Assembly (NCBI GenBank): GCA_031385045.1
Contig: JANNBC010000048.1
Coordinates: forward strand, 54,321-118,320
Reading direction: 5' to 3'
Source of the DNA: a bacterium
GTDB lineage: Bacteria > Bdellovibrionota_C > UBA2361 > CALJRW01
DNA: 64,000 nt
The translations under genes were made by a program, and so were the position numbers. The notes beneath the pieces are model-generated. The model saw only the letters and a list, made by a program, of their open reading frames with translations, did not search any database and had not been told where the DNA came from. Of this stretch, positions 30,854 through 62,290 are shown one piece after another; position 1 is the stretch's first letter, and each line of letters begins with the position of its first letter.

Positions 30854-31778
30854 TTGTTAGGCTGGATTGGTTTTTCTTAAGTCCAAGAAAAACCAATCCA
30901 CCAATTAGAGCTAAAACATAAGATTTAGCCCTAAGTACCAAACCCACCCCTAAGGCTTCTTCTGGTGTCGCCCCTAGTAATGTTAAAAAATAAAAGAAGG
31001 CGCCTTCCTGTATTCCTAAACCATTGGGCGTTAAAGGAATAGCCGAAATTAATAAAACAATCGGTAAGACAACAAACATTTGTAATACTGGAGCATCCCA
31101 CCAACCTACAGCCCAAGCTGCAGCCAAGGTATTCATCACTGTCAAACTATGAAAAAGAAAAGAAATCCCCAGTGTTACAACTAGTAACTTTGGTTGTTTA
31201 AACATTAAACGGACAGCCTCTTGAAAACTAGCAAGCTTTGGAGTGAACTTTTGAAAAAACTTCCAATAAGGAAAAATGATTTGAAAATTAAATTTTAGGG
31301 TAAAAATAATGATAGCACTGAGGACTAGTGAAATAAGTAATAAAATATAAGAAACCTTTGGTGCTAATCCTGTTAACCAAGGCAAAGCTAAAAGTGCCAA
31401 CAAGAGCATGGCAATAAAACCACTTAAACGCTCCATAAAGGTTGCTGCTAAACTTTTAGAGCGAGATTGCTTATCTGTAATTAAAAGACTTCGGGCCAAG
31501 TCTCCGCCGACAAAGGATGGTAACAATAAATTTACAAAGTAACTTAGTAAATAATATCGATAAAGCTTAGCAAGACTAACTGTAATTCCTGTCGAAGCTA
31601 AAAATATTCCCCACTTTAAAGAACTGACGTATATCATAACAAAAGAAATCAGCAGTAAAAACCCAGCTAACCCCCAAGTTATATTTTGAAAAGCACTTAC
31701 TAATTCCGAGAAATCAATAACTAAAAACAAACTTCCAAAAATGATTAATGCAAAAAGTAATTTTAAATATTTAATCAC
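30828..31778 (-). CDS. integral membrane protein, lysylphosphatidylglycerol-synthase TM-region / flippase-like (UPF0104)
   Basis: About 8 TM helices; PSFVGGDLARSLL block. Confidence 0.5.
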   Translation of the reverse strand: MIKYLKLLFALIIFGSLFLVIDFSELVSAFQNITWGLAGFLLLISFVMIYVSSLKWGIFLASTGITVSLAKLYRYYLLSYFVNLLLPSFVGGDLARSLLITDKQSRSKSLAATFMERLSGFIAMLLLALLALPWLTGLAPKVSYILLLISLVLSAIIIFTLKFNFQIIFPYWKFFQKFTPKLASFQEAVRLMFKQPKLLVVTLGISFLFHSLTVMNTLAAAWAVGWWDAPVLQMFVVLPIVLLISAIPLTPNGLGIQEGAFFYFLTLLGATPEEALGVGLVLRAKSYVLALIGGLVFLGLKKNQSSLTTSSEELEE

Positions 31779-39850: not shown

Positions 39851-39869
39851 CCCCGACTTCTCTGATACC
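39851..39869 (+). repeat. copy A of the intergenic motif CCCCGAnnTCTCTGATAC
   Basis: ccccgacttctctgatacc, with extra Cs at the 5' side. Intergenic, 150 nt upstream of the ORF at 40018. Confidence 0.5.
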
Positions 39870-47911: not shown

Positions 47912-48156
47912 AGATTTTGAACAATAAAATCAACAGGCCAATAGGATTTATGTAAAAAAAGCCAACAGATAAGCGCTTGGGGCAATTTTTATACACTACT
48001 CTAGGGCATTAAAATCCATAATCTATTAACATATTAATAGAAGAAAGCGAATTGCCAATTTAACTTGTATTTAAGCCTAAATAAAAGTTGAATCTTCTCT
48101 CTTGACGGTCTGCTTATTAACTCTATTATTAAAGGAATGATCAATTTAAAAAAAGT

Positions 48157-49344
48157 ATGAGCCAAAAATATTTAAAAACAAATTTATTTACTTCTGAATC
48201 TGTTTCTGAAGGACACCCTGATAAAATCTGCGATCAAATTAGCGATGCTATTCTTGATGCTTATCTTAGAAAAGATCCAAACAGTCGCGTTGCCTGCGAA
48301 TCCTTAGTAAAAAACAACAACGTTGTGATTGGTGGAGAGATTACCAGCAGTATCTCGATAGATCACGAACAAATTATCAGAGAAACAATCAATAACATTG
48401 GCTACAATGATTCAAAGCTTGGCTTCACTGGAGCGTCTTGTGAAATCATTAAATTCATAAGCGAACAATCACCTGAAATTAGCATGGGCGTATCTGAAGG
48501 TGAAGGCTTACATCAAGAACAGGGTGCTGGCGATCAAGGCCTGATGTTTGGCTTTGCATGCAATGAGACTGAAGAACTGATGCCAATGCCAATATCATTA
48601 TCACATAAGTTACTTTATGAATTAGCTAGAAAAAGAAAAAATAAAGAAGTAAATTTTCTACAACCTGATGCAAAATCTCAAGTAACTGTTCGATACGAAA
48701 ATAACAAACCTAAATCTATTGATGCAATTGTTATCTCTACCCAACACAACGAAGAAATCTCCCTAGATGATTTAAAAGAATATCTAATCGAGGAACATAT
48801 CAAAAAAACCATCAAGGAAGAGTACTTAACTAAAGAAACTAGATACTACATCAATCCTACCGGTAAGTTTGTAATTGGTGGTCCAGTTGGTGATTGTGGA
48901 TTAACTGGACGTAAAATTATTGTAGACACTTATGGTGGGTATGGAAGACATGGAGGAGGCGCATTTTCGGGTAAAGATCCTTCGAAAGTCGATCGCTCTG
49001 CCGCCTATATGGCAAGATATATTGCAAAAAATATTGTTGCAGCTGGACTTGCCAAGAAATGTGAAGTTCAACTTGCCTACGCCATTGGAGTTGCAGATCC
49101 GGTTGGAATTTATGTATCTACTTTTGACACAAGCGAATTCCCTGAAGAGCAATTTGCCTCAGCAGTAAGTGAAATCTTCGAGCTAACACCAAAAGGTATT
49201 ATTAAATCTCTAAATTTACTAAAACCAATATACCAACCAACTGCTTCATATGGACACTTCGGAAGAACCCCAACCAAGGAAGGACTATTTAGTTGGGAAA
49301 AAACTGATAAAGTATCCGATCTTCAATCTTACTTTAAAATTTAA
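48157..49344 (+). CDS. metK: S-adenosylmethionine synthetase
   Basis: [56 protein letters not shown]. Confidence 0.9.
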
Positions 49345-49355
49345 TAACTAACTAT

Positions 49356-50282
49356 CTACTTTGCGACAAATAAAACTGGGCGATAAGTACCGGGTGGAAA
49401 TTCAGCATTAAGGTTTCCATTTCGATACTGCTCTGAGGCATTCTTGAATGCAAAATAGATCTTGAAGTACCAGTCAACAAACTTAGCCCATCTGACTGAA
49501 CAGATAGAAAGAATCCTAGGTCGTTTTTTATTAAAATTGCTTTGTTTGGTATTTTTTGGCAAGGATCCTGGTTGTTTTTTTAGTAATTTATCGCGCCCTA
49601 CAAAGCCAACTCCATTACTCATTCTGCTTTGTACAATTTCTCTGATTCGCACTTCTAGTTTTTGAATCATCAATTTTTCATACTCATTCTGAGTAAGACT
49701 CTCATACCCAGGCAATCTTTTAAATTTTAATTGAACAGTGTAAGTATAATCTTCAATCCTAACATCATGAGACCATCTTTTCTTCTCATTATAATCTTTC
49801 CATTTCACCACCTTAAACTTTCGTACTATCCCCCTGATTGAATCATAAAAACAATTATACCCGGGATAATCTTTAATATGCCTCACCAATCCATCCTTAA
49901 CCGGCTGTAAGACAGTATAAAAAAAATATTCTTCAATATCATCAGCACCAGGCGTAAACTCATTGGAGTATCTTCTAGCAAAGAGATTACTTCCTGGAAA
50001 TTGACCACAACGTCTACTTACAGCACGAGCAATTGAAGCATTAAGATCTCTCATAAAACTAGCCCGATTGGAATTAGGAAAATGTGCCAGCTCATGATGA
50101 TGATTCCCCTCAATCGCAATAGCATATAGATCTACATTATAGATCTCAGAATACTTAGCAGTGTATGCCAAGATATCCTGTTCTAGCTGAAAATTATTAA
50201 TGAACCATAATTCGGAGTTCCTTGTTCTCGTCGTACAAAAGGAAGCTATTTCTGATGATTCAATTCTAGGATGATAAGACAT
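49356..50282 (-). CDS. HUH Y1 transposase-like protein (IS200/IS605 TnpA / REP-associated tyrosine transposase family) with a C-terminal extension
   Basis: HuH motif AIEGNHHHEL at roughly aa 60; RAYT-like block SFMRDLNASIARAVSRRCG; catalytic-helix motif YFFYTVLQPVKDGLV (Y…Q). 308 aa, of which ~140 form the Y1 domain. No inverted-repeat IS ends are visible. Confidence 0.6.
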   Translation of the reverse strand: MSYHPRIESSEIASFCTTRTRNSELWFINNFQLEQDILAYTAKYSEIYNVDLYAIAIEGNHHHELAHFPNSNRASFMRDLNASIARAVSRRCGQFPGSNLFARRYSNEFTPGADDIEEYFFYTVLQPVKDGLVRHIKDYPGYNCFYDSIRGIVRKFKVVKWKDYNEKKRWSHDVRIEDYTYTVQLKFKRLPGYESLTQNEYEKLMIQKLEVRIREIVQSRMSNGVGFVGRDKLLKKQPGSLPKNTKQSNFNKKRPRILSICSVRWAKFVDWYFKIYFAFKNASEQYRNGNLNAEFPPGTYRPVLFVAK

Positions 50283-50339
50283 ATAGTAACAAATAAATTA
50301 TTACTTGCTTATCGACTTGATTATAAAAAAGTTGCTCTT

Positions 50340-50765
50340 CTAATTAACTACACCTTCAAAGTATCTGTTAACTTGATCTGTAGGCTCAATATCTTTTGAA
50401 TCATATGATACATGTCGACGATATTCATCTAATTCTATCCTATTGTTCTTGAGTAAATCATAGTTATTTTGAATAATAGAGTTATTATCTTTAATTTGCT
50501 TGTTTTGTTTATATTTTTTATACGCATACCTTGAGACAAGAACTGTCCCGGCACCTATCCCGGCACCAAGCCCGGCACTAGCTAATATATCACCATCAGA
50601 GATTGCCGCCCCGACTAACGCACCAGCGCCTGCTCCAATTCCAGCACCTACACCTGTAGCAGCTAAAGTAGACATGCCTTGCTCTTCATCGATTGTTGCG
50701 CAACCAACTAAGAGAACAAGTGAGAAGATAATAACTGTAAATTGATGAAATTTTTTAATACACAT
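50340..50765 (-). CDS. glycine-zipper (Rick_17kDa_Anti/SlyB-like) lipoprotein
   Basis: Lipobox LLVGC; GVGAGIGAGAGALVGA…GLGAGIGAG glycine-zipper repeats. Confidence 0.55.
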   Translation of the reverse strand: MCIKKFHQFTVIIFSLVLLVGCATIDEEQGMSTLAATGVGAGIGAGAGALVGAAISDGDILASAGLGAGIGAGTVLVSRYAYKKYKQNKQIKDNNSIIQNNYDLLKNNRIELDEYRRHVSYDSKDIEPTDQVNRYFEGVVN

Positions 50766-50782
50766 ATATGTATTATCAAAGT

Positions 50783-50812
50783 TGACTTAAATTTTGATTC
50801 AGATCAACATAA
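50783..50812 (+). promoter_or_regulatory. sigma70-like promoter for trmB (TTGACT-N18-CATAAT), 7 nt before the ATG at 50820
   Basis: Hexamers read directly from the sequence. Confidence 0.3.
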
Positions 50813-50819
50813 TTTAATC

Positions 50820-51464
50820 ATGAAAAACAATTGTAACCCTTATTCTGACTTAATCCACGAATTCTCTGATACCATCTGGAATGGCCTAAACAATCTACAA
50901 CTAGCTGAAATTACAAGTAAATTAACTAGCTACAATGATATTTACCTTGAAATTGGCAGTGGCTCAGGAAATTTTTTAATTAATCTAGCTAGTGCTAATC
51001 CAGACAAATTATACGTTGGAATTGAGCTAAGATATAAACGTTGCGTTAGAACGGTGCAAAAAGCTCAAAAGTTAGCCATTCAAAATCTACTAATTATTAG
51101 AGAAGATGCTAACTTAGTCCTTCCCCAACTTCTCCGAGAATCTATTAGTGGAGTTTATATCAATTTCCCGGATCCGTGGGCAAAAAAACGCTGGCTTAAA
51201 CACCGCATGATTTCTATAAAGTTCCTAGATGAAACCTCTCGTATCTTAAAAAAAGATGGATTTATTAAGCTCAAAACGGATCATTCCGACTATTATTACT
51301 CGAGTAGAGAGATCTTTCAAACTCACTCACAGTTTAAACTGCAAGACTTTTCCGAAGATCTACACAATAGCGACCTAAAAAAAACTAATATTCTTACGGA
51401 ATTTGAGCAGTTATTTCAATCTAAACAAAAACAGATCTACTTTGTACATTTTACACGAAGCTAA
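50820..51464 (+). CDS. trmB: tRNA (guanine46-N7)-methyltransferase TrmB
   Basis: EIGSGSGNFL (SAM motif I) and FPDPWAKKRW. Start set to the internal ATG at 50820 because the longer ORF would overlap the upstream gene, and a TTGACT-N18-CATAAT promoter lies at 50783-50812. Confidence 0.7.
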   Translation: MKNNCNPYSDLIHEFSDTIWNGLNNLQLAEITSKLTSYNDIYLEIGSGSGNFLINLASANPDKLYVGIELRYKRCVRTVQKAQKLAIQNLLIIREDANLVLPQLLRESISGVYINFPDPWAKKRWLKHRMISIKFLDETSRILKKDGFIKLKTDHSDYYYSSREIFQTHSQFKLQDFSEDLHNSDLKKTNILTEFEQLFQSKQKQIYFVHFTRS

Positions 51465-51817
51465 TCCAAACAAAATACTTACCTCTTGACTGCTTTTCTA
51501 AGTACAACTAGTTGATTTATATCAAATTATTTCTCTCCCTCCCTTCAAAATTCAATTCTTAGCTAAAAGACTGAACATCTATTATAGAAAAATTTTTATT
51601 TATATCTTTATCAGTCACTACTCAATTATAATAAATATTAGATTGAAGATTTCAGCTAGGCACATTTGTTTTGATGATCAGGGCAACTTTTCTTGGCTAA
51701 GATTCGATATAGAGAATAATGATTCAGAAGATAATTTTTGAATATTTAAAGAAGACTCTTTCATCATAGTAATAGAAGATTAACCGTAAAGTTAGTCATT
51801 AATTTCTAAGGTTTTAT

Positions 51818-54571: not shown

Positions 54572-54590
54572 CCCCGACATCTCTGAGAAT
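54572..54590 (+). repeat. copy C of the intergenic motif
   Basis: ccccgacatctctgagaat, between lpxL (3' end) and the start of the TPR gene. Confidence 0.45.
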
Positions 54591-62221: not shown

Positions 62222-62240
62222 CCCCGAGTTCTCTGATACC
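62222..62240 (+). repeat. copy B1 of the intergenic motif
   Basis: ccccgagttctctgatacc. Confidence 0.5.
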
Positions 62241-62270: not shown

Positions 62271-62290
62271 CTCCCGATATCTCTGATACT
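62271..62290 (+). repeat. copy B2 of the intergenic motif
   Basis: ctcccgatatctctgatact, 22 nt upstream of a TGgTATATA extended -10 box. Confidence 0.5.

Follow-up and report, generated by a model that had tools for sequence, protein, structure and literature searches.

Y1 nucleases of the HUH superfamily, such as IS608 TnpA and TnpA_REP, perform metal-dependent cleavage of single-stranded DNA (ssDNA) via a 5'-phosphotyrosine intermediate, at sites set by a short structured or guide-paired element. Here we analyzed a gene of this kind in a 64,000-nucleotide stretch of a bacterial genome (GTDB Bdellovibrionota_C; contig JANNBC010000048.1, positions 54,321 to 118,320; hereafter the window), where it is located at 49356-50282 on the minus strand, convergent with metK. 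At a probability of roughly 70%, we consider it an immobilised, selectively maintained and probably domesticated copy of a new subfamily that resembles the RAYTs, which are tyrosine transposases associated with repetitive extragenic palindromes (REPs), and the TIRYTs, possibly acting in trans on a dispersed chromosomal motif.

Several described systems are relevant for comparison. The TnpA proteins of the IS200/IS605 insertion sequences (ISs; IS608 TnpA, PDB 2VHG; subclass 1.1) span about 130-150 residues with a DH[VI]H motif and no extra domain, and the elements have subterminal hairpins, often tnpB, and near-identical multiple copies; none of this is found at the window gene. E. coli TnpA_REP/RAYT (PDB 4ER8; subclass 2.2 of Quentin et al. 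2018; Bertels group 2) is 20% identical to the window protein, which adds a C-terminal region of ~150 residues. The class 2 RAYT signature is Y-x3-N-P (Quentin 2018), whereas the window family displays Y-x3-Q-P, and most relatives possess H-U-Q rather than H-U-H. The REPtron arrangement, with the gene placed between inverted REPs, is not observed for the window copy, while most relatives have a form with terminal inverted repeats. In this respect the relatives match the TIRYT/TIRtron type (Di Nocera et al. 2013, PMC3733652; mostly Quentin subclass 2.1), a RAYT-like gene with terminal inverted repeats that are not classic REPs, and the likeness extends to repeats that are also solo, dimeric or clustered and moderately abundant, and to proteins longer than RAYTs. 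Comparable cases are treated as REPtron-like by Quentin et al. (PMC6006769). The TIRYT repeats, GGGGWSAS, are however distinct from the core of the relatives, TCTCAGAGAC, the HTH/Bac_DnaA_C-like C-terminus of subclass 2.1 is without a match in the window family, and the flanking repeats of TIRtrons are absent from the window copy.

Class 3 TnpA_Y1 proteins have been described as intermediate between ISs and REPtrons: their HUH motif is NH-x-H, the Tyr motif contains Gln, and the gene, at times present more than once per genome, is flanked by atypical repeats that are numerous in the genome (Quentin et al. 2018, PMC6006769). Compared by published signatures, they nevertheless depart from the window family, with Y-x4-Q as opposed to Y-x3-Q-P, a median of 178 as opposed to ~310 residues, an occurrence in Planctomycetes, Acidobacteria and Proteobacteria as opposed to Bdellovibrionota, and a CnGA foot in place of which the window family has another repeat. 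Subclass 2.3 (Chromatiales/Alteromonadales; Quentin et al. 2018) is alike in its median length of 325 residues, its long specific C-terminal tail and its several moderately diverged copies per genome, and differs, again by published signatures, in NHYH, YVDLNP, two core insertions, a lack of flanking repeats and its taxon. Large subclass-specific C-terminal domains and repeat-less Y1 genes have thus already been reported in general terms (Quentin et al. 2018, PMC6006769), precedents that limit the surprise of what follows.

The window gene is a complete open reading frame (ORF) with an ATG start, encoding 308 residues followed by a stop codon, and the codons of Y122 (49917-49919) and Q126 (49905-49907) can be read from the sequence. 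The locus is composed as follows:

49356-50282, minus strand: ORF of the Y1 HUH nuclease/transposase homolog, member of a Bdellovibrionota-restricted family (from the ORF list, homologs and AlphaFold2 model)
49818-50282, minus strand: RAYT-like N-terminal catalytic domain, about residues 1-155
50094-50102, minus strand: HUH motif codons H61-H62-H63, CATCATCAT on the coding strand (from sequence and conservation)
49905-49919, minus strand: catalytic helix Y122-T-V-L-Q126, with the Tyr nucleophile and a putative third metal ligand (from sequence and conservation)
49359-49817, minus strand: basic/aromatic, family-specific C-terminal region, about residues 156-308, a predicted beta-alpha-beta unit and two long helices
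48157-49344, plus strand: metK, convergent neighbour and native flank of the insertion site
49345-49355, no strand: 11-bp spacer between the stop codons of metK and the Y1 gene, too short for a right end
50283-50339, minus strand: 57-bp spacer between the Y1 gene and the upstream gly-zipper lipoprotein gene, without a left-end repeat
50340-50765, minus strand: Gly-zipper_YMGG lipoprotein gene, upstream same-strand neighbour and native flank of the insertion site

A preliminary description of this DNA had pointed to an NHHH motif, a Y…Q catalytic helix, a distance of 11 bp to metK and an absence of flanking inverted or palindromic ends. All four are recovered here: H61-H62-H63 lies at 50094-50102, Y122 and Q126 are present, the metK stop is at 49344, and repeat and flank searches detected no inverted or palindromic ends bracketing the gene. 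The proposed division into a ~140-residue core and a ~170-residue extension needs adjustment, with the core reaching residue ~155 and the family-specific part comprising ~150 residues. The term single-copy applies to the 64-kb window, in which tblastn identified no second Y1 copy. No tnpB adjoins the Y1 gene.

The kinship to Y1 transposases is weak by sequence and clear by predicted structure. The Pfam model PF01797 (Y1_Tnp), suggested early on as a check, does match the window protein, but at 21.9 bits, below the cut-off of 23, and covers residues 32-107 only; among relatives it is found at E < 0.01 in 15 of 20. NCBIfam NF047646 (REP_Tyr_transpos) scores 36.1 bits, below its equivalog cut-off of 80, and spans positions 12-144 of the 146 in the model. 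Searching the PDB with the single protein yielded spurious spike-protein matches and 4er8 at E 0.38, the family profile returned 4er8 as its sole match (E = 0.08), and PHROGs gave one weak match of unknown function. An AlphaFold2 model generated from a 20-sequence alignment (pLDDT 89.5, pTM 0.87) displays the Y1 catalytic fold. In the profile alignment to 4er8, Y122-T-V-L-Q-P-V-K-D-G-L-V falls on Y-I-Y-I-N-P-V-K-H-G-W-V and SDYPGY on SDWPFS, and the core is thus of the RAYT type, with Gln replacing the class-2 Asn. Together with the NCBIfam match, this alignment bears out the initial assignment to the RAYT-type Y1 HUH enzymes.

Conservation was assessed for 191 other family members aligned with the window protein. 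H61 is kept in 190 of them, and Y122, Q126 and W26 are each invariant (191/191), so that the HUH and Tyr residues are not lost on careful alignment. At position 63, 119 relatives have Gln and 72 have His, making the family mostly H-U-Q, with His in the window protein, and P127 of Y-x3-Q-P is retained in 162. Among 91 columns conserved to at least 90%, the window protein keeps 89, the exceptions G98S and A148S both being conservative, and the W of the W-x-R-R-Y motif is replaced by F in the window protein and in its closest relative. The pattern supports an active enzyme.

The C-terminal half (153 residues) is rich in basic and aromatic residues, with 32 K+R versus 14 D+E and 23 F/W/Y. It is conserved like the core, with the motifs YPGYNCF, RLPGYE, RPRxLS, WYF and FPxGTYxP. 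No Pfam family was found in this half in 20 of 20 members, nor any Bac_DnaA_C or HTH match. When the region was used as a phmmer query against 1.84 billion representative proteins, 176 matches were obtained; the full-length ones all share one architecture, with the region at about residues 145-306 of a ~310-residue protein, the rest are fragments, none is of the subclass 2.3 type, and the genome matches are nearly all from Bdellovibrionota. The novelty proposed for this region is supported, as no known family or fold was recovered. Its proposed link to domestication did not stand, for the region is a full-length family trait that is also present in multi-copy, repeat-flanked relatives at 55-69% identity. 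Modelled alone, it gives a low pTM compared to 0.87 for the whole protein, which suggests that it packs against the core instead of folding as an independent domain. It may help to recognize DNA, for example the part 3' of the TCTC-N-GAGA mini-palindrome.

In total, 644 homologs of the window protein were recovered, the best 120 of which are full-length (55-100% identity, 95-100% coverage). The family is almost confined to metagenome-assembled genomes (MAGs) of Bdellovibrionota/Oligoflexia, with 131 confirmed loci in species-representative genomes; the best 80 of these 131, from 53 assemblies, were kept for study. No prior description of this Bdellovibrionota family was found in the literature searched, and it apparently represents an undescribed TnpA_Y1 subfamily, in which a RAYT-like core is joined to a C-terminal region of ~150 residues found nowhere else.

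The relatives have the appearance of mobile elements. Each of 14 assemblies contains 2-7 copies, which form sets at 87-97% amino acid identity within a genome and 47-77% between sets. When copies from a single genome are compared, their DNA remains similar from ~90-170 bp upstream to 230-260 bp downstream of the ORF but no further, which delimits a unit of ~1.25-1.3 kb. Most relatives have the gene bracketed by ~20-bp inverted repeats with the core TCTCAGAGAC conserved across genomes (consensus (a/t)TtcTCTCAGAGACcgCGcG), positioned 60-230 bp before the ATG and 150-260 bp after the stop. At the 66 loci with complete flanks, the 10-nt core in the expected orientation, allowing at most one mismatch, is present on both sides in 27 and on one side in 15, against a background of ~0.02 per flank; several loci scored as lacking it have variant repeats, for example TCCTCAGNGCGTCCGATA in CAZDWZ. 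Some of the repeats are fully palindromic, AAGGTCTC-T-GAGACCTT in L081 being one example; many are extended at the 3' side in a genome-specific manner, and certain genomes carry short tandem motifs immediately outside the repeats. Solo copies of the core are also enriched: between 400 and 1500 bp from the gene there are 14 exact ones where 0.29 would be expected, and farther out than 1.5 kb there are 9 (~1 expected). The GT[AG]G-type REPs anticipated in the preliminary description are not the associated repeats, the family repeat being a different one.

Further observations were made on the organization of these units. In L012, L014, L022, L032 and L081 (whole loci) and at the ends of L017, L023, L026, L029, L031 and L033, the terminal repeat also appears solo, paired (REPIN-like, e.g. 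L032 693-731) and tandemly clustered, frequently with an 11-13-nt motif such as CCCCAATATTT present twice in tandem just outside it. In some genomes the entire unit of gene and repeats has been amplified locally, in tandem or in clusters: L062 has two Y1 genes in tandem ~1.3 kb apart, and contig CAZDWZ010000027 holds three copies within 44 kb (L071, L073, L075). In L035, L051 and L052 the non-coding stretch from the stop codon to the right repeat is ~90% conserved among copies and ends ~255 bp past the stop in a segment able to form a hairpin, CCCCCAGCAGCTGTGCTTGTTTGGGGG; another copy of this segment follows ~500 bp further on.

The window copy presents a different picture. Neither in the window nor in the sister genome (locus P0002 on JBGSMD010000013) is there any terminal repeat or family core within 450 bp of either gene end, and the spacers of 11 and 57 bp leave no space for such repeats at the window gene. 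The sister ortholog is the closest relative (69.3% amino acid identity), and synteny extends over at least eight genes (TPR gene, orf271, trmB, gly-zipper, Y1, metK, malic enzyme and uppP), whereas the window neighbours are shared by none of the other 79 loci. Between the two Y1 genes dN is 0.229 and dS ~2, which is saturated, giving a dN/dS of ~0.11 or less. The neighbours trmB (69.5% identity), gly-zipper (68%) and TPR (65%) have diverged to a similar degree, metK being 90% identical, and the GC content of the Y1 gene, 0.36, is close to that of the window, 0.364. Neighbour-joining places the window clade within a set of repeat-flanked clades, and its sister in the tree, L020, keeps palindromic flanks. 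A complementary view is offered by L087 (MetK 69%), in which 99 bp separate metK from a convergent, homologous gly-zipper gene and the Y1 gene is missing from this place, representing an empty site for the insertion. The lineage itself is isolated, as the window MetK is 90% identical to that of one Bdellovibrionota MAG (JTS-AC222) and at most 72% to everything else in a collection of 5.8 billion proteins. Thus, the window gene shows the marks of vertical inheritance and selective maintenance. These marks lend support to the early proposal of a domesticated enzyme, the word domesticated being what we infer from two genomes.

The same data bear on two simpler accounts of the gene. It could be an ordinary active IS200/IS605-type insertion sequence, the transposase of which is seen here once, as the relatives behave like mobile elements, with several copies per genome, conserved ends and varied contexts, and as the Y-x3-Q spacing fits an IS200-type TnpA (Quentin 2018, PMC6006769). 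Yet the window gene is devoid of terminal repeats or hairpins, is confined by spacers of 11 and 57 bp, is represented once in 64 kb, encodes 308 residues, twice the length of an IS200 TnpA, displays host-like GC, and occupies the same position in a genome where the ortholog is 69% identical and dS saturated; an active IS is already largely refuted for this copy, and we regard it as very improbable. The gene could also be a neutral relic, a stranded and useless transposase gene that has yet to decay. The lost ends, the lack of a demonstrated function, the sub-threshold scores of the curated family models and the W-to-F exchange in both genomes are in line with this notion. In contrast, the ORF is intact in both diverged genomes, dN/dS resembles that of neighbouring host genes, all catalytic residues and 89 of the 91 conserved columns are kept, and both halves of the protein are constrained (N-terminal 76% and C-terminal 62% identity between window and sister), rendering a relic improbable.

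Although the gene has no repeats at its ends, the window is not repeat-free. The strict 10-nt family core, with at most one mismatch, gave four matches, which is at chance level, and none near the gene; a variant of the core with two mismatches was instead found through a blind repeat search and a matrix scan. Among the output of the blind search were the inverted pair I4 (46242/47498) and the 21-nt family D5 (39850, 50854 and 62221). In reverse complement, D5 reads TGGTATCAGAGAATTCGTGGA and matches 17 of 18 positions of the terminal repeat TCTCAGAGAATTCGTGG of L036, one of the closest relatives with repeats according to the protein tree. When 78 family repeats were turned into a matrix, five window matches of at least 14 bits were obtained versus 0.5 in shuffles, with a top score of 20.8 against 18 for the best shuffle. 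The resulting 15-nt pattern TCAGRGAWNTCGKGG (longer form T(A/C)TCAGRGAWNTCGKGG) has six exact copies, three intergenic (39851, 54572, 62222) and three in genes (uppP, malic enzyme, trmB), and one copy with a single mismatch in the window, compared to 0.09 expected:

39851-39869, minus strand: GGTATCAGAGAAGTCGGGG, solo, intergenic, 5 nt after a stop codon
46245-46259, minus strand: TCAGGGAAGTCGGGG, inside uppP, position conserved in the sister genome
47508-47522, plus strand: TCAGGGAACTCGTGG, inside the malic-enzyme gene, identical in the sister genome
50855-50873, minus strand: GGTATCAGAGAATTCGTGG, 5' part of trmB, 572 bp upstream of the Y1 start codon, 17/18 to the L036 terminal repeat
54572-54586, minus strand: TCAGAGATGTCGGGG, intergenic, ~35 nt upstream of the TPR gene start, best window match to the repeat matrix (20.8 bits)
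62222-62240, minus strand: GGTATCAGAGAACTCGGGG, intergenic
62272-62290, minus strand: AGTATCAGAGATATCGGGA, one mismatch to the 15-nt pattern, in the same spacer as the 62222 copy, 50 bp away

The sister genome has copies with at most two mismatches at the homologous in-gene positions. Among codons for identical amino acids in window and sister, third positions are the same in 19 of 23 inside the motif versus 382 of 770 outside (binomial p 0.0012). Six of the seven copies are on the minus strand, a bias that is not significant at this copy number, and the uniformly negative GC skew of the plus strand indicates that the minus strand is the leading-strand sequence. Across 88 loci, the exact pattern was found only at the site homologous to that of the window in the sister genome and beside Y1 genes, namely in the left end of L036 and, for L015 and L024, some 860 bp downstream. 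We regard the motif as real and its kinship to the family repeat as probable. The palindromes starting with GT[AG]G that had been proposed as a search target gave a negative outcome, as neither GT[AG]G-type REPs nor any palindromic repeat family was found in the 64-kb window, where the non-hairpin motif related to the family repeat was seen.

Two candidate lines concerning the motif were discarded. The copies at 50855 and 47508 were considered as displaced original ends of the element, and this was rejected because both are inside conserved host genes; the empty site of L087, which keeps the gly-zipper gene outside the element, also rules it out. Moreover, a metagenome scan with GTATCAGAGAANTCGGGG gave 28 single matches; the contigs concerned vary widely in GC, and no Y1 homolog is encoded on any of them. 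We attribute these matches to chance and regard them as uninformative.

How the motif and the enzyme relate allows for more than one interpretation. The gene may encode a domesticated Y1 nuclease with a role unrelated to the motif, for instance in another ssDNA transaction or in defence, with the motif being an independent DNA-level signal that resembles the family repeat. Consistent with such a separation, no copy is located within 500 bp of the Y1 gene, the motif forms no hairpin, half of the exact copies lie in conserved genes at the same positions in both genomes, which is a poor fit to mobile repeats, and several Y1 subclasses have large C-terminal domains without associated repeats (Quentin 2018, PMC6006769). 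On the other hand, outside the window and its sister counterpart the exact motif turns up across the 88 loci only beside Y1 genes, one instance forming the left terminal repeat of L036; it agrees with that repeat at 17 of 18 positions, L036 is one of the closest repeat-bearing relatives in the tree, and the five matrix matches of at least 14 bits contrast with the 0.5 of shuffles. We therefore find this separation of enzyme and motif unlikely. A bolder proposal is a fully domesticated system, in which a single, end-less and vertically inherited Y1 nuclease with a new DNA-binding C-terminal fold and a cognate 15-19-nt chromosomal motif under DNA-level selection, found also within housekeeping genes and mostly on the lagging-strand template, would serve a host ssDNA function at replication forks rather than transposition; we consider this possible but rather unlikely.

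Returning to the immobilised, maintained copy that we favour, its history and action may be outlined as follows. The unit would have inserted between metK and the gly-zipper gene before the window and sister genomes split, and would have lost both ends, the gene since being inherited vertically under purifying selection. By analogy to TnpA_REP and IS608 TnpA, H61, H63 and Q126 would act as metal ligands that polarise the scissile phosphate, and Tyr122 would form the 5'-phosphotyrosine link. Such an enzyme would be unable to move its own gene, and could act in trans on the dispersed motif T(A/C)TCAGRGAWNTCGKGG, probably the clade-appropriate variant of the family repeat and, judged from this resemblance, a candidate substrate.

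Several points weigh against this interpretation. The curated Y1 and RAYT models score the window protein under their cut-offs, and the DNA-recognizing role of the C-terminal region is one that we infer. The end-less clade has two members, and with dS saturated the dN/dS is only an upper bound. Furthermore, the view covers 64 kb of the genome, and other or repeat-flanked gene copies could exist elsewhere. Scans identified no promoter or terminator for the Y1 gene. With respect to the motif, its link to the enzyme consists of sequence resemblance and phylogenetic congruence, it was partly defined after matches had been seen, and it is without a hairpin of its own; three of the six exact copies are in conserved coding sequence, where codon usage could add to the conservation.

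Regarding expression of the gene, a 21-nt block, TCGATAAGCAAGTAATAATTT, at 50295-50315 on the minus strand, just 5' of the Y1 ATG, is near-identical in the sister genome (L006 upstream spacer), while the remainder of the 57-bp spacer differs between the two genomes; a promoter or 5'-UTR role is possible for this block. A search of the 3.6 kb around the convergent metK/Y1 junction (48000-51600) revealed no terminator-like hairpin, and considering the 11-bp distance the metK and Y1 transcripts may overlap.

Other features of the window are of a more general nature. Its GC content is 36%, with the GC skew uniformly negative. No tRNA genes and no Rfam families at threshold were detected in the 64 kb, including no SAM riboswitch upstream of metK (leader about 47928-48156). 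The longest hairpin, at 30863-30900, has a perfect 16-bp stem and a 6-nt loop (TGGATTGGTTTTTCTT AAGTCC AAGAAAAACCAATCCA). At 147-708, a 43-nt segment is present three times, spaced 258-261 nt (repeat family D1), which probably reflects a ~87-residue protein module repeated in a gene that runs off the window start.

Two open questions are how HUH tyrosine transposases become domesticated and what purpose RAYT-like enzymes serve in their hosts. The family described here provides a natural series within one phylum, ranging from multi-copy repeat-flanked units and single flanked genes to at least one end-less, syntenic and maintained copy, along with an empty site. The C-terminal region that is exclusive to the family and the conserved repeat core TCTCAGAGAC represent defined substrates for biochemistry. 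If the dispersed motif is a target of the enzyme, the synonymous-site conservation of its in-gene copies would argue that a Y1 nuclease and its site have a role at the level of the host.

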